Source: an uncultured Eubacteriales bacterium
GTDB taxonomy: Bacteria > Bacillota > Clostridia > TANB77 > RGIG9151
Length of the DNA stretch: 20,243 nt
Direction: 5' to 3'
Assembly: GCA_964631135.1 (NCBI GenBank)
Contig: CAZVVZ010000005.1
Location: forward strand, 1 to 20,243
Made by a program: the position numbers and the translations under genes. Below, one piece after another: positions 13 to 20,243 of this stretch. The notes beneath the pieces were generated by a model. The model did no database searches, was not told the origin of the DNA, and saw only the letters and a program-made list of their open reading frames with translations. The number at the start of each line of letters is the position of its first letter. The stretch's first letter is position 1.

Positions 13-41
13 AAAGAGCCTTGTAACAAGGCTCTTTTTTT
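13..41 (+). terminator. Rho-independent terminator of a + strand gene lying left of the window
   Basis: 10-bp stem aaagagcctt (13-22) / aaggctcttt (28-37), 5-nt loop gtaac, followed by a T-run through 41. Confidence 0.7.
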
Positions 42-66
42 CGTGTAAAAAGGAAATATTCGTTCC

Positions 67-241
67 TTTTATGTTACTAGTCAGATTACTACTCTACGAA
101 AATAGTATATATGTTTTAAAAGGAACGAATATTTGCAGAAAGACTTCCCGTATTTTTTAAAGTCTTTCGTCGCAAATCCTGAGTTCCGATAAAACATATA
201 TACTATTTTCGTAGAGTAGTATCCTAAACAGTAACATAAAA
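67..241 (+). repeat. Long imperfect palindrome, copy 1 of a dispersed hairpin element family
   Basis: Positions x and 308-x pair. Outer arms 67-105 / 203-241 pair at 34 of 39 positions by hand count. Segments 106-147 and 160-202 are identical to copy 2 (13791-13832 and 13848-13890). Variable apical loop around 148-159. Confidence 0.85.
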
Positions 242-279
242 TCAACAAAAAAACATATGATTCTTTGAGGTGAATTTAT

Positions 280-2522: not shown

Positions 2523-5500
2523 ATGAAAAATAATAATGATAAATCTCTTTGTGAGCTAAATAAAGATTTTGCGGCCATTTTTAATATATATAAGAAACTA
2601 AATGAAAATAAAACTTTAATGATACCTGCAAGCGAGTGGCTACTTGATAATTTCTATATTATCGAAGAGCATGCGAAGCAAATAAAAAGGGATTTTAATA
2701 AGAAAATATATAAAAATCTGCCTATGGTTGACTCCGGCTTTACTAGAGTTTTTACTATCGCACGTGAAATTGTTTCTCAAAATGACGGTAAAATAGACGA
2801 GAATATTATTGAAAAATTTATAAATAAATACGAGGAAGTAACTCCGTTATATATGCGGGAAATATGGAACTTGGGAGTATGTTTACGAATTGCACTTATT
2901 GAAAAAATTCGAGGAATAAGCGAAAAAATAATGGAAACATATCACAAATGGGAGCAAGCTGAAAAATGGATTATAGATTACCCTTTGGTGGCGGAGCTAA
3001 AGCTTCCGGATATAGCAAATAATTATTCTTTTTATGAGCATTTAGCATATAAATTGCGCAGAATGGGAAAAGATGGGATTATTACTATAAACCGTATCGA
3101 CAGTTACATAGAGCGATATGGTACGAGCATAGAAATCATTTCAAGAAAAGAACACAGCATTCAGGCAAGAATGAAGATTTCTATTGGTAATTCAATTCAA
3201 AGCTTAAAGTATATTTCCAATATAAATTGGAATGATGTTTTTAATGAAATAAGTGAGATTGAGCATATTTTTGAAAATGAAAAATCCGGGATATATAAGA
3301 AGATGGACTTAGAAAGTAAAAATGCTTATCGAAGTAGGGTAGAAAGCATAGCTAAGGATTTAAAAATTTCAGAACTTCATGTTGCAAAAAAGTGTGTTGC
3401 TTGTGCTGATGAAAATTATAATGATGAAAAATGGGGGCATGTTGGATGCTATTTATTCGGTGAAGGCGAAGATACGTTCCTAAGTAAGCTAAATGTAAAA
3501 TTACCGAGATGGTATAAATTAAAGCGGCATTATAAAAATAAACCTTTTTCAATTTATTTTTTAACTATGTTTCTGTTTGCATTGATATCTACCGCGCTTT
3601 TTGGAGTACTTTTATATTATAATAATTGGTTATCCGCAGTAGGCTGGATAGGGTTGATAATAGCATTTATTATTGCTTTTGACGGTGGAAATTGTTTTGC
3701 AAATTATATGTTTAGCAGAATTTTTAAACCTAGGATTATTCCAAGACTTGATTTTTCCGGCGGAGTCCCTGAAAGTTCAGCAACAATGATTATTGTACCA
3801 ACATTATTGTCTAACGAAAAACGTGTAAGAGAGATGCTTTCTAATCTAGAAAAGTATTATATCGCGATACAGGATAAAAATGTGCTTTTTACATTGCTTG
3901 GAGATATAAAAGAAAGTGAGACTGAGGAAACTGAAGAGGACGAAACTATTGGGGAAATAGGTGTTAATACAGTAAATGAATTAAATAAAAAATATGGAAG
4001 TAATAAGTTTTTCTTTGCATATAGGAGAAGATTTTTTAATGCTTCGGAAGATAAATGGCTCGGGTGGGAGCGAAAAAGAGGGGCAATATTAAAGTTTAAT
4101 GACTTCTTATTAACCGGAAAATCTGATGATTACAGAATAATTTCCGGAGGTTTTGATGAAATTCCCAAAATAAAATATGTTCTGACGGTTGATGCAGATA
4201 CTTTTATCCCTATAGGTGAAGCAAAAAAGCTTATTGGAGCAATTTCTCATCCGGTTAATATTCCTGTGTTAAATGAAGAGGAAACGGCAGTAATTTCAGG
4301 TCATGGACTTATTCAGCCACATATCGGAATAGATGTGGTTAGTGCGAATCGGAGCAAATTTTCACAAGTTTTTGCCGGTACGGGCGGAATAGATCCATAT
4401 GTTTGTGCATCATCAGATATATATCAAGATTTGTTTGGAGAGGCAATTTTTACAGGTAAAGGGATTTATAATTTAGAAGTTTTTCAAAAAGTGTTAAGTG
4501 AGACTATCCCTGACAATGCCATTTTAAGTCATGATTTATTAGAAGGGTCGTATTTACGGGCAGGCTTAGCTACGGATATTGAGCTGATTGATGGTTACCC
4601 ATCTCGCTATAATGCATATGCATTAAGATCACATAGATGGGTAAGAGGTGACTGGCAGATAATAAAGTGGCTTTTTAAGAATGTACGAAACAAGAGCAAC
4701 GAGAGAGTTAGAAATCCTATAAATAAAATTTCTAAATGGAAGATTTTTGACAACCTTAGGAGAAGTCTTACAGCTCCTTTTATGCTACTGCTTATTTTAC
4801 TTTCTTTTTCGATTTTACCCGGAAATCCAATATTTTGGACAGCATTTGCGGTTATTCTGGGGATAAGAGGGAGTAAGAGACAATTTTTATATCAATTCTT
4901 GTTTTTGCCTTTTCAGGCATGGCTTATGTTTTCGGCAATATGTGTAACTATTTATAGATTGTTTTTTGTTAAAAAGAATTTGCTTGAATGGGTTACTGCG
5001 GCAGACATGGAAGTAAAACTGAAGAACACTTTAGGCAGCTTTTATGTTCTGATGAAATCTAATGTTATTTTTGGTTTAATGGTTTTAGCTGCTTCTTATT
5101 TTATTAAAGGAGATATTTTTTCTATAGTGTTGGGTACTTTTTTATTTGTAGTTTGGACGGTTGCTCCTTTTATTGCATTTAGTATCAGTAAGCCTATAGA
5201 TAATAAAAAAGAGAAATTAAATGATGCGGAAATTAAGGAATTAAGAGAATTTGCAAGGAAAACATGGGCATATTTTGATACTTTAATGAATGAGGAGAAT
5301 AATTTTCTTCCTCCGGATAATTTTCAGGAAGATCCGCCGAATGGAGTTGCGAATAGGACTTCGCCGACTAATATAGGACTTGGAATGTTGGCACTTTTAT
5401 CTGCTTATGATTTAGGGTTTATTGAAATTAGTGAAGTTAAGGATAAGATGGCGAAACTGTTAAATACTGTTATGCAACTTGAAAAGTGGAATGGGCACAT

Positions 5501-10201: not shown

Positions 10202-10220
10202 ATCGGTTAATATAAAACTA

Positions 10221-10874: not shown

Positions 10875-12983
10875 CTAATCTAATAAAATTATTAAAGCAG
10901 TTTCCTCATCGTCACAGAGTATAACCATTACTCTATCGCCTTCATCAATGTCACCCTCATCATATGCATCTACATAATCGGTTAAATTTTTACCCGGCTT
11001 TGTAGAATCATAGTTTACAAAAACTGCATTTGATAGAACATCTATAGTATACTCCTCACCATCATCGGCTTCAATTACAATTTCATCATCATCAATATCT
11101 GTGATTTCACCTACTAAGTAATTATCGTCTAACATGTCTTCTGAAGACAAGTAGTCACTGCTGCTAGAACTGCTTACCAATTTAGATTTTTTAGAAGCAA
11201 CTTCCAATTCTTCAATATAATCATTTTTCCCTAAAACAATTTTTACAAACTTCCCTTCGCTGTACAGATAACTTGATGTCGCAATTTTACTATATGTTTT
11301 ATCGGTGCCGTCATAAGAAAAGTCAGTATCGTCATCGAAATAGTAATCTTCTTCTTCATCATCGTAATCTCCATCGTACTCGTTAATATAGTCATCCATT
11401 AAAATATATTCTTTTCCGCTGTCTACATCTTCGATAACTATATATCCCTTTTTAGTACTTGCTTCTGTTATTTCACCGATTATATCATCATCTTCATCAT
11501 CGGAATCGTCATCATCTGTTAAAGTAGCTTCTTTAGTTGCAACTTCTAGCAAATCTATATAGTCATTTTTACCTAATGTAATAGCTACATAGTTGCCCTT
11601 TTTATACAAATAGCTTGATGTTGCGATATTTTTATAGGATTTTGAAGAACCGTTATATTCATATTCGGTATCATCATCAAAGTAATAATCTTCTTCTTCA
11701 TCATCATAATCCTCATCATATTCATCAATATAGTCATCCATTAAGATATATTCATCGCCATCATCATCTTCGATTACTACATAGCCATACTTCGTACTGC
11801 AATCAATTATTTTTCCGATAATTCTTTCTTCAGGCGAAACAACCGCAGCTTTTACTATATAGTTTGTAGAATCTACTGTTAGAGTTACCTCGTAATCTTT
11901 CTTTATAGCAGATGTCAATGTAGAAGATTTTCCATCTAAAGTATAAGTAGTAGAAGAATCATATGTGTATGCTATTCTTGAACCGTTTGAAGTTACTGTT
12001 ATAGTTTTAGAGGTTGAGCTTGCAGCATAAATGGTGCCTTTTACTGTTTTTGTAGTTATTTTTGCACCTTCGGATATATTCATTGAAGTAATATATAAAT
12101 CGTTTGTAATAGTAGCTGTAACAGTAGCATTTGCTTTCATAGAAGAAGAAGTAACTTCTTTAGAATTTACATAGAATTTTGTATTGCTGTCATATTCATA
12201 CTCTTCTGTAGTTCCATTTACTTTAATCCATACACTGCTTGCACTGGTATCTATTTTAGTTATAGTTCCGGTTACAAACGATGTTGCGGAAGCAGTATTA
12301 GAATTTGTATTTGTATTAGAACTTTCATCAGAAACAGATGGTTTTATATCTATTTTTTTATATATTCTTTGCAAAATAGATGCAGCTTGAGCACGTGTTA
12401 GAGAGGTCTTAGGTGAGAATGTTTCACTATCCATACCTGCCATAATTTTTTGAGAATACACATAATAAACATAAGGTTTTGCACTGGCTGATATAGAAGC
12501 AGTATCAGAAAAAGGTAATACGACTATTGAATTTTTGGTAGCTTCACTCTCTTTTCCCAAAACTTTAGTTACTAAAACTGCCATTTCTTCTCGAGTCAGC
12601 GGAGAATTTATTTTATCAGAAGCTAATAAATTATCCAGATCACTTTCTTTTAATACATTTACACCCATTAAATATGCAACATCTTTTTTATATTGAGTTG
12701 TATATTTAGACAATGCAGAAGTATATTTTTCTAAAAATTTATTTGCTTCAGTAGGGTAATTATTCAAACCCGCAACTCTTGAAAGCAAGATTAAACTTTC
12801 AATTTTCGAAATCTCTTTTGACGGTCTAAAAGTTCCGTCAGTATAACCGGAAATAATTCCGGCTTTTACCATTTCTTCAACTACACCTTTTGCCCAATGT
12901 CCTTCCGGCAAATCGCTGAATGCTGCAAAAGATGTTGTGGTTAACATCACAGTAACCATAAGAATTAAAAAAAACTTTTTCAT
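10875..12983 (-). CDS. Secreted S-layer-homology (SLH) domain surface protein with Ser/Thr-rich beta region and hyper-acidic C-terminal repeats
   Basis: 702-aa ORF with SD gaggagga. Signal peptide MKKFFLILMVTVMLTTTSFAAF. SLH motifs FSDLPEGHWAKGVVEEM...GYTDGTFRP and FSPKTSLTRAQAASIL. A T/S-rich segment is followed by D/E/Y-rich repeats. Confidence 0.85.
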   Translation of the reverse strand: MKKFFLILMVTVMLTTTSFAAFSDLPEGHWAKGVVEEMVKAGIISGYTDGTFRPSKEISKIESLILLSRVAGLNNYPTEANKFLEKYTSALSKYTTQYKKDVAYLMGVNVLKESDLDNLLASDKINSPLTREEMAVLVTKVLGKESEATKNSIVVLPFSDTASISASAKPYVYYVYSQKIMAGMDSETFSPKTSLTRAQAASILQRIYKKIDIKPSVSDESSNTNTNSNTASATSFVTGTITKIDTSASSVWIKVNGTTEEYEYDSNTKFYVNSKEVTSSSMKANATVTATITNDLYITSMNISEGAKITTKTVKGTIYAASSTSKTITVTSNGSRIAYTYDSSTTYTLDGKSSTLTSAIKKDYEVTLTVDSTNYIVKAAVVSPEERIIGKIIDCSTKYGYVVIEDDDGDEYILMDDYIDEYDEDYDDEEEDYYFDDDTEYEYNGSSKSYKNIATSSYLYKKGNYVAITLGKNDYIDLLEVATKEATLTDDDDSDDEDDDIIGEITEASTKKGYIVIEDVDSGKEYILMDDYINEYDGDYDDEEEDYYFDDDTDFSYDGTDKTYSKIATSSYLYSEGKFVKIVLGKNDYIEELEVASKKSKLVSSSSSSDYLSSEDMLDDNYLVGEITDIDDDEIVIEADDGEEYTIDVLSNAVFVNYDSTKPGKNLTDYVDAYDEGDIDEGDRVMVILCDDEETALIILLD
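11120..11822 (-). repeat. Intragenic tandem repeat: two units of about 113 aa (about 339 nt) plus a partial third
   Basis: Unit 1 (aa 388-500, nt 11484-11822) starts IIGKIIDCSTKYGYVVIEDDDGDEYILMDDYIDEYDEDYDDEEEDYYFDDD. Unit 2 (from aa 501, nt 11483 downward) starts IIGEITEASTKKGYIVIEDVDSGKEYILMDDYINEYDGDYDDEEEDYYFDDD. The third partial unit reads LVGEITDIDDDEIVIEADDGEEY. Confidence 0.8.
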
Positions 12984-13719: not shown

Positions 13720-13740
13720 TTAGACGTGAGTTAAGAAAAG

Positions 13741-13940
13741 GGGCATAAAAGACTTCTTTAAATAGGTTGCTGCTCAGACTAAAAAAATACTATATATGTT
13801 TTAAAAGGAACGAATATTTGCAGAAAGACTTCTTCTACTATTTTTAGAAGTCTTTCGTCGCAAATCCTGAGTTCCGATAAAACATATATAGTATTTTTTT
13901 AGTCTGAACAGTAACCTATTTAAATGAGTCTTTTATGGCC
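13741..13940 (+). repeat. Long imperfect palindrome, copy 2 (longest, 200 nt) of the hairpin element family
   Basis: Positions x and 27681-x pair. Outer 50 nt of each arm (13741-13790 / 13891-13940) pair at 45 of 50 positions by hand count. The core is identical to copy 1. It fills 200 nt of the 235-nt gap between convergent genes. Confidence 0.9.
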
Positions 13941-13954
13941 TCCGTCTTGCACTT

Positions 13955-17685: not shown

Positions 17686-17800
17686 TTTACTTTTTGAATG
17701 CATAGAGTTATTTTCCAAGTGTAACTGATGATTAAGGCTACTCATATTTTCCGCTCGTTTCGCGACAAAATATTAAGGCATCTTTTGCATTCTGTGAAAG

Positions 17801-17920
17801 TAAAAAATACAGTATATGTTTTATCGGAACTCAGGATTTGCGACGAAAGACTTTTAAAAACATCAGAAGAAGTCTATCGGCAAATATTCGTCCCTTTTAA
17901 AACATATACTGTATTTTTTA
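17801..17920 (-). repeat. Imperfect palindrome, copy 3 (120 nt, opposite orientation) of the hairpin element family
   Basis: Positions x and 35721-x pair, with perfect 23-bp outer stem 17801-17823 / 17898-17920. 17814-17853 is the exact reverse complement of the 40-nt right arm of copies 1 and 2. The other arm (17870-17909) differs at 3 positions. Confidence 0.85.
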
Positions 17921-17993
17921 TTTAAATTTAAAAAAGTTTTTGCAATCATTTTTCTAGTGTCTCAAGTAGTATTTGCTTTCCCACACATTTATA

Positions 17994-18902: not shown

Positions 18903-20243
18903 TTAGTTATTTTCTTCGTATAAAGCTTTAGCATTACCCGGTAAAGAACGAATATGACGTAAAAATGCATATACATTCTTATCATCGTCGGAGTTATAGA
19001 CAAACCCAAGCTTTTCAGCAACAAAAGTTGCATTTTTTCTAAACAGTTCAATCATGATAAACAACGAATCCCAGCATCGCTCATAATCTGACATATTGTA
19101 GCTCCTCATAAGACGTTCAAACATATCTTTTGGAAGATAATTTTCCATATATTTATCTTCGTTGCCGGTAGAAACTTCAAAGTTATTTTCAATTCCTATA
19201 CGAAATCTTATCATTTTTAATAATTCTTTTCTGACACAACTTTCTATATGCGAAGTTGCATATAAAAACTCTTTTCGCCATAATCCCTTAGCAACATATA
19301 CAGAAACCCACCAAAACTCGTTACAGCAATCATGGAATTCTTTTTGAGTAGGCTGCTTTATCCAATGAGATTGGTCAGATGGGGAGGCAAGAGTAGGTAA
19401 TACTTTGTCTTTATCAAGTAAAACTTTCGTAAGTGAATCTTCTTTTATATAATTTCCACGTTCTTCATAAGGAATAATAGTTAAATCAATTCTGTTTCCA
19501 TCAATAAATTGCATTAAATAAGAAAAACGTTTATCATCTTTTTTTGCACCTGTCATCAATGACGGAGTCTGCATTATAAGCCTTCTGCCGAAAATATTTA
19601 TCCAGTTGGGGTCTTTAGTAAATGATTCATAGTTATTTACTATAAAAGCTATATCATAATCTTGAAAAAAATCTTTTGGGGCTTTAGGATTGATTCTTGA
19701 TCCATTCATGGCAACAATTCTAATCCTATCATCTTTTTTCGCGGTATCTATAATGAGTGAAAGAATAGATTCCTCAGAACGAGTAATAGCCTTTGTTTTA
19801 GTATGCAAATCTTTTTTTAAATAAACTAAATCGGAGCATTCTTTACCGTTAACCATTATTGGATCGCTATAATTTTTAGTGAAAAAATTGTCTACGGTAT
19901 GAGAATACTGAAAACCAAATTTTTCATAAAACGGCGGATATGATGTGCCGGCAAGCATTGTGGAAAATTGGTTTTTATAAATCTGAAAGATATGCTGTAA
20001 AAGTTGTTTTGCAAAGCCGTGTCCCTGATATTCGACAGAAGTTGCAAGATTTTTTATTTCACAAGTTGTTTCATCTGCTTTTGAAATAACAACTTCAGAA
20101 ACAGCAACACCGTTTACACTAAGCACAAACATCTCACTTTTATCTAAGTATTTATCTATCATTTTTTCAGAAGGATCTGCAAGTAAAAGCAGATCTAGGT
20201 AATCTTTTTTATTTGAAGTAACTTTTTTTATATTTATTAACAT
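18903..20243 (-). CDS. aadK: Fusion protein: N-terminal GNAT acetyltransferase (YvbK-like) + C-terminal aminoglycoside 6-nucleotidyltransferase ANT(6)/AadK-like
   Basis: 446-aa continuous ORF with ATG at the last 3 nt of the window. aa 1-145 carry YLDLLLLADPSE...EIKNLATSVEYQGHGFAKQLL...FYEKFGFQ (GNAT). aa ~155-446 are collinear by eye with B. subtilis AadK (RIRIVAMNGSR, FQDYDIAF, CCNEFWWVSVYVAKGLWR). Confidence 0.8.
   Translation of the reverse strand: MLINIKKVTSNKKDYLDLLLLADPSEKMIDKYLDKSEMFVLSVNGVAVSEVVISKADETTCEIKNLATSVEYQGHGFAKQLLQHIFQIYKNQFSTMLAGTSYPPFYEKFGFQYSHTVDNFFTKNYSDPIMVNGKECSDLVYLKKDLHTKTKAITRSEESILSLIIDTAKKDDRIRIVAMNGSRINPKAPKDFFQDYDIAFIVNNYESFTKDPNWINIFGRRLIMQTPSLMTGAKKDDKRFSYLMQFIDGNRIDLTIIPYEERGNYIKEDSLTKVLLDKDKVLPTLASPSDQSHWIKQPTQKEFHDCCNEFWWVSVYVAKGLWRKEFLYATSHIESCVRKELLKMIRFRIGIENNFEVSTGNEDKYMENYLPKDMFERLMRSYNMSDYERCWDSLFIMIELFRKNATFVAEKLGFVYNSDDDKNVYAFLRHIRSLPGNAKALYEENN

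Follow-up and report, generated by a model that had tools for sequence, protein, structure and literature searches.

A small hairpin-forming DNA repeat with a conserved asymmetric core and locus-specific mirrored arms in uncultured spore-forming Clostridia

Several kinds of small palindromic DNA are known in bacteria. Among the bacterial MITEs and palindromic repeats of RNA-like structure are Correia/NEMIS, ERIC and, in the Bacillus cereus group, bcr1: small, non-autonomous, intergenic and hairpin-forming repeats that often lie at gene 3' ends and can serve as terminators or processing sites. Their terminal inverted repeats are conserved, and they come with target duplications. Integron attC sites are recombined as folded single strands; their structure is better conserved than their sequence, conserved extrahelical bases tell the functional strand apart, and compensatory changes are Watson-Crick. 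Their R and L boxes are conserved at the base, the tip is variable, and the sites lie in cassette arrays beside the integrase. IS1397 and ISKpn1, full insertion sequences with transposase genes, insert into REP/PU loops. REPINs are REP doublets that form hairpins and are mobilised by RAYT tyrosine transposases; their conserved 16-mers, the REPs, lie at the outer ends with a variable spacer in the centre, and compensatory changes between the two sides of the hairpin are common (PMC3116915). Finally, template switching has been documented as creating and repairing hairpin stems (PMC8794818), and quasipalindrome-associated template-switch mutation has been described in E. coli (PMC7202029).

The stretch of DNA analyzed here, which we call the window, is 20,243 nt long. 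It encodes DpaA, SpoIIID, BofA and CotF, together with an SLH protein, HisRS, Asd and GH94 glucan-synthase-like proteins, and comes from the chromosome of a spore-forming member of the Clostridia. The window species is represented by metagenome assemblies alone, from ENA (ERZ272792xx), Logan (SRR118808xx) and one NCBI MAG, and ~36 kb of its DNA was reached. Related regions were gathered by walking outward from the window via protein look-ups, and 237 kb of related DNA was scanned in total. The related species are called A to E, and their HisRS is 86-92% identical to that of the window. In the coordinates below, L009 is species A, L011 is B, L064 is D and L066 is E; L003 is an independent assembly of the window species, L001 is a strain of it, and L005 is a strain variant at copy 1. 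The set of copies comprises 11 distinct ones from six species, three in the window and eight more in the same and five related species.

Each copy is a ~100-nt asymmetric core that caps a long, perfect, locus-specific palindrome. In all copies the segments of the core follow the same order: P1 (ATATRTTTTA), AAA, P2 (GGAAC), GAAT, P3 (ATTTGC), A, P4 (GAAAGAC...) and a variable apical loop or extra hairpin, and then, in the 3' half, P4', GTC, P3', C(C)CTGA, P2', GA or GC, and P1'. Four helices, P1 to P4, form between arms A and B, and the unpaired bases between the helices are near-invariant, GAAT facing C(C)CTGA and A facing GTC. All copies (11/11) keep the unpaired GAAT and CCTGA, and 10/11 have the A/GTC bulge. 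P1 is conserved (ATATRTTTTA/TAAAAYATAT); P2 occurs as GGAAC/GTTCC, GGGAC/GTCCC, GGTGC/GCACC or GATGC/GCAAC, P3 as ATTTGC/GCAAAT, ATTTTC/GAAAAT or ATTCAC/GTGAAT, and P4 as GAAAGAC/GTCTTTC or GGAAGCC/GGCTTCC. Arms A and B are ~75% alike as inverted repeats, and the apical loops are T-rich on the A-to-B strand. Beyond P1 the arms continue for 20-122 nt per side in sequence private to each locus, and in every copy the stem stands between a left-hand A-run and a right-hand T-run. The copies have no ORF in common, and a coding role was dropped because the overlapping ORFs are only short and inconsistent. In a by-eye comparison, the internal loops fitted neither hairpin-ribozyme loop A (AGAA/GUC), nor the kink-turn (tandem G·A with a 3-nt bulge), nor the 11-nt tetraloop receptor (CCUAAG/UAUGG).

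A sequence-only reading of the window had placed three copies at 67-241, 13741-13940 and 17801-17920. All three are there, the first and the third now delimited as 59-249 and 17798-17923, with the core of the third on the minus strand. The mirrored differences that it had listed are present in the sequence as well: g105/c203 in copy 1 against c13790/g13891 in copy 2, ag at 17811-17812 with ct at 17909-17910 in copy 3, and, further out in copy 1, tactactctacg at 87-98 mirrored by cgtagagtagta at 210-221.

Copy 1 (plus strand) has 60-nt inverted arms (59-118/190-249, 87% in an inverted-repeat search). The inner arms (87-118/190-221) are perfect over 32 nt, and the outer arms (59-86/222-249), which are older than the inner ones, have 7 mismatches in 28 positions that were left uncorrected. 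The core, covariance-model positions 1-103, lies at 105-204 on the plus strand (cmsearch 113.1 bits, E = 9e-26) and reads P1, AAA, P2 GGAAC, GAAT, P3 ATTTGC, A, P4, apical loop, P4', GTC, P3', CCTGA, P2', GA, P1'. The sequence of this copy is the same in the independent assembly L003. At its left edge an inverted fragment of the A arm (the reverse complement of TAAAAGGAACGAATATTT) lies at 54-71 on the minus strand and pairs with 117-134 over 18 nt with 100% complementarity, and in L005 a 68-nt deletion has occurred at this edge between AAAAGGAA repeats, so that the left arm is missing. Directly before copy 1, at 7-41 on the plus strand, is an intrinsic terminator (aaagagccttgtaacaaggctcttttttt) of the upstream RNase J-like β-CASP gene, which is seen in L003.

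Copy 2 is a 200-nt hairpin on the plus strand (13741-13940) with arms at 13741-13803/13878-13940 (63 nt, 92%); the arms extend for ~60-63 nt with four mismatches left uncorrected, and the core is at 13790-13892 on the plus strand (120.5 bits, E = 1e-27). It had been described as a near-perfect hairpin and does fold as a single one: as RNA it reaches -110.4 kcal/mol on the plus strand (z = -18.3) and -107.7 on the minus strand, as DNA -68.3 kcal/mol (z = -17.4), with 0/200 shuffles as good and z-scores of -17 to -20 overall. Copy 3, the short form, lies on the minus strand with arms at 17798-17823/17898-17923 (26 nt, 96%) and its core at 17809-17911 (minus strand, 109.6 bits), and is inverted relative to copies 1 and 2 in the inverted-repeat search. 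With arms of 23-26 nt and its A-run/T-run bracket, it resembles a long bidirectional terminator. Its A arm carries GGGAC, which it shares with the species A copy at the orthologous site (L009:1002-1105).

The position of the copies past gene 3' ends, two of them between convergent genes, was seen as earlier claimed: copy 1 follows the upstream terminator, copy 2 lies between CBM53 (+) and HisRS (-), and copy 3 between CotF (+) and the metallophosphoesterase gene (-). The statement that the copies have no U-tail was right only in part. Brackets of an A-run and a T-run do exist (TAAAAAAATAC...GTATTTTTTTA in copy 2 and AAAAAATAC...GTATTTTTT in copy 3, which ends in TATTTTTT), but the T-run is mostly paired within the longer stem, and a simple terminator scanner (loops of 3-8 nt, three G-C pairs required) called no copy.

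A fourth full copy of the window species, c4, was found at L003:5071-5227, with 43-nt perfect arms and its core at L003:5094-5204, and two further copies are degenerate halves, which brings the species to 4 full and 2 partial copies in ~36 kb. An outer GTTACNGNTCAG motif is common to copies 1, 2 and c4. The covariance model, built from the 11 distinct copies and scoring the cores of copies 1-3 at 109.6-120.5 bits, found no further copies in the 237 kb of related DNA; this includes four UvrB-centred regions of relatives (77 kb), in which neither nhmmer nor the model found any copy. Rfam 15 had no match to the whole window at the gathering threshold; below it were only generic long-hairpin miRNA models on both strands, for example MIR8562 with 48.6 bits against a gathering value of 211. 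Plasmid and phage collections gave no blastn match, and the exact 24-mer GCAAATCCTGAGTTCCGATAAAAC, from the best-conserved arm, was absent from 185,579 species genomes, JGI metagenomes and IMG/VR. With a degenerate two-arm pattern, 50 matches were obtained in genomes, of which one is genuine (L040, 'uncultured Eubacteriales bacterium', GCA_964640345.1) and the other 49 are coding or chance; 19 of the matches were exactly 65 nt long and lay inside a conserved coding region, by eye that of a putative class II aminoacyl-tRNA synthetase gene. A tighter two-arm pattern had no match in metagenome and viral contig collections, the former evidently scanned without the JGI samples that hold the relatives. 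The palindromes of the window thus belong, as had been proposed, to a dispersed family, and as far as tested it has no name: Rfam, phage and plasmid searches gave nothing, and the genome, metagenome and viral scans gave one related MAG. The family is previously undescribed and confined to a narrow group of uncultured spore-forming Clostridia.

REPINs are the nearest described kind to this element. Like them, it is non-coding, extragenic and multi-copy, forms one long single-stranded DNA hairpin and carries compensatory changes, the fold and the changes both being confirmed here, and its solo A arm and solo B arm correspond to their singlet remnants. The layout is reversed, however: conservation lies in the centre, and each locus has outer arms of its own. 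Furthermore, neither a RAYT (Y1 HUH transposase) gene, within ~36 kb of the host genome, nor a GTAG-type REP signature was identified with the element, and its host belongs to a Clostridia clade, whereas REPIN hosts are Proteobacteria or cyanobacteria. Judged by their descriptions, Correia/NEMIS, ERIC and bcr1 differ from our element, in which the termini vary, the conserved stretch is internal and asymmetric, and no duplications were seen. The conserved unpaired bases and the Watson-Crick compensatory changes are shared with attC sites, but the copies are solitary, sit among housekeeping genes with no integrase nearby, and have neither basal boxes nor a cassette array. No partner gene (transposase, recombinase or other) and no full-length parent element was present in the DNA reached. 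Two candidate partners were rejected: a YhgA/Rpn-like gene at the copy 2 site of species A, the sole mobile-looking gene, has no core beside it, and 430-aa proteins in L008 and L066 are mere orthologues.

In the model-based alignment, 95.1% of stem cells are paired across the 11 copies, several of which are orthologous, so that these statistics rest on few independent events. Shuffles gave 80.2 ± 1.2% pairing, with 0/500 reaching the observed values, and sliding the 3' partner by 1-3 columns, as a control, reduced pairing to 33-49%. Both sides have changed in 16/35 pairs. Compensatory changes are in excess, with a two-sided Watson-Crick change in 56 cells versus a one-sided (G·U) change in 2, and strand asymmetry is absent (2 G·U versus 3 A·C cells). 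Transversion flips (UA to AU, CG to GC), for which no wobble intermediate is possible, are frequent among the changes. The pairing bears out the argument of the sequence-only reading that copy-and-paste alone cannot give the mirrored differences. Because there is almost no G·U and no strand asymmetry, the complementarity is Watson-Crick and strand-symmetric, which is expected from DNA-level copying and not from RNA-level selection.

These numbers bear on a structured RNA, be it a 3'-UTR element, a long bidirectional terminator or a small RNA, in which selection would act on the helices, and the conserved internal loops would either be bound by a protein or make up a tertiary motif. The covariation of P2-P4 around unpaired bases that do not vary is the classic signature of a folded functional strand, and the location of every copy downstream of genes, the A-run/T-run bracket on each hairpin and the T-rich apical loops of the A-to-B strand would all suit an RNA. 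Nonetheless, we consider an RNA unlikely. Besides the near absence of G·U, folding is equally good on both strands, and the core is oriented randomly relative to transcription: in co-directional contexts copy 1 is sense, and c4 and the L040 copy are antisense, and in species A the core is opposite to that of B and E at the same locus. Random orientation argues against a cis-acting RNA; a role at the DNA level, or flipping through inter-arm recombination, would be in keeping with it. Moreover, selection on RNA cannot make perfect arms of 98-122 nt or inverted copies of coding sequence, no Rfam family matches, and a consensus scan found 28 promoter-like sites where 26.4 were expected from shuffled sequence.

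Copying of one arm from the other at the DNA level is the best-supported explanation of why the arms match. At the metallophosphoesterase/CotF site of species A, the arms (L009:919-1016 and 1090-1187) are 98 nt long and 98% complementary. The left arm takes in the last 34 nt of the metallophosphoesterase CDS (65-952), which encode ...EICVITLNSK*, and is the ancestral one, because EICVITL is conserved in other species; the right arm is an inverted copy of the left and ends one base before the CotF stop codon. In species D the arms (L064:4908-4976 and 5052-5120; 69 nt, 99%) overlap the end of HisRS (CDS to 4932) and the end of CBM53 (CDS from 5107), and they join the ancestral sequence at a common TTTGGAAATAA. 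The CDS-containing arms are reproduced in independent assemblies, L008 and L010 for species A and L065 for species D.

Smaller changes passed between arms in the same manner. The outermost stems of copy 2 (ATAAAAGACTTCTTTAAAT at 13744-13762, one arm of the ancestral HisRS terminator stem, and its partner ATTTAAATGAGTCTTTTAT at 13919-13937, both given on the plus strand) share homology with the plain terminator of HisRS in species A (L009:4959-5005), down to an identical internal 2-nt mismatch. In strain L001, CA stands for TC at 13755-13756, in one arm, and this mismatch has become a perfect match. The orthologous copies of species B and E, which share locus, orientation and apical insertion, differ by GTC/GAC versus TGC/GCA, a change mirrored on both arms (GT to TG, AC to CA). 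The arms are unique to each locus in a comparison across copies; they also had no match in the phage collection, and the idea that they are captured foreign DNA (spacer-like) was rejected.

The earlier reading had offered either selection on a helix or templating of one arm from the other. For the arms, we prefer templating because of the inverted coding copies, the 2-nt correction in a strain, the mirrored dinucleotide change and the purely Watson-Crick changes; selection is still required for the asymmetric unpaired bases of the core. Since the outer arms of copies 1 and 2 keep mismatches (7/28 and 4/60), arm correction is episodic and not constant. Long palindromes that lack the core, with 27-41-nt arms, likewise run into coding ends in the relatives, and because they behave alike, arm copying may be a general trait of these genomes that the core merely exploits or nucleates. 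In quasipalindrome template switching, too, one arm templates the other, a multi-base 'compensatory' change arises in one step, and stems become perfect (PMC7202029, PMC8794818). This process fits the L001 correction, the mirrored dinucleotide of B and E and the perfect long arms, but it is a mutational mechanism and not an element family, and it leaves the core and its spread between loci unexplained. The literature searched held no report of ~100-nt extensions overwriting gene ends around a dispersed repeat. To our knowledge, REPINs carrying inverted copies of neighbouring coding sequence have not been reported either.

Occupancy of the sites is patchy among the species. The HisRS/CBM53 site is occupied in the window species and D and unoccupied in A, B, C and E; the metallophosphoesterase/CotF site is occupied in the window species, A and C and unoccupied in B, D and E; and the BofA/GH94 site is occupied in A, B and E (L009:9958-10277, L011:14899-15030 and L066:14920-15049) and unoccupied in C, D and the window species, where the intergenic space is ~20 nt (10202-10220). 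Empty sites carry ordinary short bidirectional terminators. For the c4 site, Lgt/SpoIVB, the intergenic regions are too diverged for an empty-site alignment. The cores of copy 1 and c4 are 98% identical although they lie at different loci, and copies of the closest relative match the window core at 74-80% identity. Copy 2 occupies the loop position of the ancestral HisRS terminator, so at least this copy landed at a hairpin apex. In this respect it resembles IS1397 and ISKpn1, which also insert at the apex of an existing extragenic hairpin, but the inserted unit here is a non-coding hairpin of 100-160 nt. Part of the difference between copies, which the earlier reading had missed, is insertion of copy 2 into an existing terminator hairpin. 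Taken together, the patchy sites, the nearly identical cores of copy 1 and c4, and the place of copy 2 in an ancestral terminator loop point to a mobile, REPIN- or MITE-like element, although independent insertion cannot be fully separated from ancient presence and repeated loss.

If the element were an ordinary MITE, a classical transposase would move it in double-stranded form; A and B would then be the two imperfect TIRs of a parent insertion sequence, co-evolving with the transposase, and the variable outer arms would be the different terminators into which it inserted. The ~75% likeness of A and B, the bidirectional terminators at empty sites, the outer GTTACNGNTCAG motif of copies 1, 2 and c4, and copy 2 itself, which is demonstrably within an ancestral terminator stem, agree with this, yet we find it doubtful. 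The positions at which the arms differ are invariant and those that they share vary in a mirrored way, the opposite of transposase-bound repeats, and the termini are the least conserved part. P1 could be a short terminal repeat, but the palindrome continues past it in variable sequence, and its ends are not fixable. No target-site duplication was seen at the edges of the 11 copies, where flanks are palindromic or unrelated, and no loop remnant at their stem/element junctions. Existing terminators, in addition, cannot hold the inverted 34 nt of a neighbour's CDS. Finally, no parent, that is, an autonomous insertion sequence with the same ends, was found in the 237 kb of related DNA or in the phage, plasmid, viral and genome scans.

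If the element were not mobile, it would be an ancient conserved hairpin, passed on vertically and lost again and again at a small number of 3' intergenic sites, and genome-wide homogenisation of palindromes would do the rest. The same three convergent-gene sites do recur across species, the derived GGGAC is common to copy 3 and the species A copy, and the core-less palindromes behave alike. We hold this to be very improbable: the cores of copy 1 and c4 are nearly identical at unrelated loci, whereas the core of the closest relative at the copy 3 site is only ~74% identical to the window consensus, and the 4 full and 2 partial copies in ~36 kb stand against none in the four UvrB regions. Several short MAG contigs of the window species also end within a copy, which is typical of a multi-copy repeat. 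That chimeric inverted joins made the palindromes during amplification or assembly is barely credible, for although all data are metagenome assemblies and palindromes are a known class of artefact, the copies with their arms recur across samples and assemblers (window/L001/L003, L008/L009/L010, L011/L012, L064/L065 and L066/L067) and are internal to contigs, between syntenic genes.

On balance, we think it somewhat more likely than not that the element is a mobile, small, non-coding hairpin DNA repeat with a conserved asymmetric core, whose arms are mirrored by DNA-level template switching. The core would be copied between intergenic sites downstream of genes, landing at least once in the loop of an existing terminator hairpin, and would have spread recently in the window species. 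We infer that the copying between arms, for which the loci above give the direct record, takes place by a template switch at replication: the palindrome would fold, and the nascent strand would switch template and copy the opposite arm, as in quasipalindromes, so that any change could move from arm to arm in a single step. The palindrome would also grow outward by copying one flank to the other side, up to or into the 3' ends of the flanking genes. The unpaired bases of the core appear to be under selection because they survive a process that otherwise makes the arms identical, presumably since the folded single strand is read by a partner. The analogy of REP/RAYT, IS608 and attC/IntI makes a mobilising enzyme the most likely candidate for this putative partner.

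A further possibility, to which we give little credence, is mobile DNA of a new type that does without conventional cut-and-paste. Its core would be copied into hairpin apices or would prime fold-back ('rolling-hairpin'-like) synthesis, making its own arms from the target flank, and a putative enzyme acting on the folded strand would recognise the invariant unpaired bases. If true, fold-back synthesis would account for arms that are private to each locus, pair perfectly, run to any length as far as the stop codon of the neighbour, and can overwrite the ends of genes. A variant in which the core spreads by template switching with no transposase at all seems to us just as improbable.

For metagenomics, these repeats break assemblies of this Clostridia clade. 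For the inference of RNA structure, they indicate that textbook 'covariation' is possible in a repeat family with no selection on an RNA helix. For genome evolution, they provide a clean natural case of arm-from-arm copying, which has otherwise been seen mostly in E. coli reporter assays and statistical reconstructions. The copying is visible at three time scales, between strains as the 2-nt correction, between sister species as the mirrored dinucleotide, and between loci as arms of up to 122 nt; twice, the copied arm takes in the final codons of the gene next to it. For mobile DNA, the usual layout of palindromic repeats is inverted, with a conserved centre and private arms, and the invariant unpaired bases hint at a putative partner that reads the folded DNA.

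Copy 1, one of the full copies of the hairpin repeat, lacks its left arm in one strain of the window species (L005:200-345, which corresponds to window 41-249). The loss results from a 68-nt deletion between AAAAGGAA repeats, and the half of copy 1 that remains carries several unmirrored changes. This variant looks like either decay after loss of the partner arm or a mis-assembly.

Two degenerate copies of the element were also found in the window species, one beyond each end of the window. Just beyond the window end at 20243 (L001:257-667 and L001:745-800), the genes for RNase P RNA (class A, 252 bits) and a tRNA precede a degenerate half copy, which consists of the A arm of the core only (ATATATGTTTCAAAAGGAACGAATTATAGC). 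The other degenerate copy, at L003:7699-7842 on the upstream side, keeps the B arm (GGAAGTCTTTATGCAAATTTTGAGTTCCGCTAAAA), and its 21-nt outer arms reach into the 5' end of an S11 peptidase gene. Unlike every other copy, it is flanked by divergent genes.

A second short repeat, GCAAAAGATRCCTTAATATTTTGTCGCGAA, adjoins copy 3 (window 17750-17790, minus strand) and copy 4 (L003:5016-5050). Relative to the core, its orientation is opposite, and no further occurrence was found among the retrieved loci.

At the HisRS|CBM53 intergenic site, exactly where the window carries copy 2 (orthologous to window 13720-13954), species A has a gene for a 368-aa YhgA/Rpn-like PD-(D/E)XK 'putative transposase' (L009:5099-6205; PF04754, 108.7 bits; TIGR01784, 53.8 bits). 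Two ordinary terminators flank this gene, and no element core lies beside it at this site in species A.

Two further features stand apart from the element. Within the gene for an SLH-domain protein (window 10875-12983, minus strand), a stretch of 229 nt occurs twice as a direct repeat (11183-11411 and 11525-11753, 73%), and short repeats of acidic codons are numerous. A ACGAATATTTTTTCGTAGAG-hairpin-CCACAGAAAAAATCCTGAGTG motif is common to MAGs of Patescibacteria and a Gammaproteobacterium (L025:7168-7229, L042:3049-3112 and L062:5644-5709); a degenerate search pattern matched it by chance, and although unrelated to the hairpin repeat it has the look of a small, conserved structured element.

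Among the short metagenome contigs of this clade, the ends of L002, L004, L006, L007 and L040 (the last from a related MAG) fall inside a copy of the element or at its border, and the element therefore fragments assemblies.

Relatives also carry long, near-perfect palindromes without the core at gene 3' ends, with arms of 27-41 nt (L064:8616-8692 and L064:1081-1152 in species D, L063:11319-11406, and L011:11318-11379 in species B). Two of these include the last 10-14 nt of coding sequence. The convergent BofA and GH94 genes of species B have 3' coding ends (GAAATGATTATTTAA and GAAATAATGTGTTAA, respectively) that form mutual imperfect inverted repeats (L011:14865-15065), and BofA in species B and E has three additional residues and a changed C-terminus. 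These inverted repeats and the altered C-terminus may have been left by a palindrome that spread into the coding region. The core-less palindromes at gene 3' ends in relatives suggest that palindrome extension is common to the clade as a whole.
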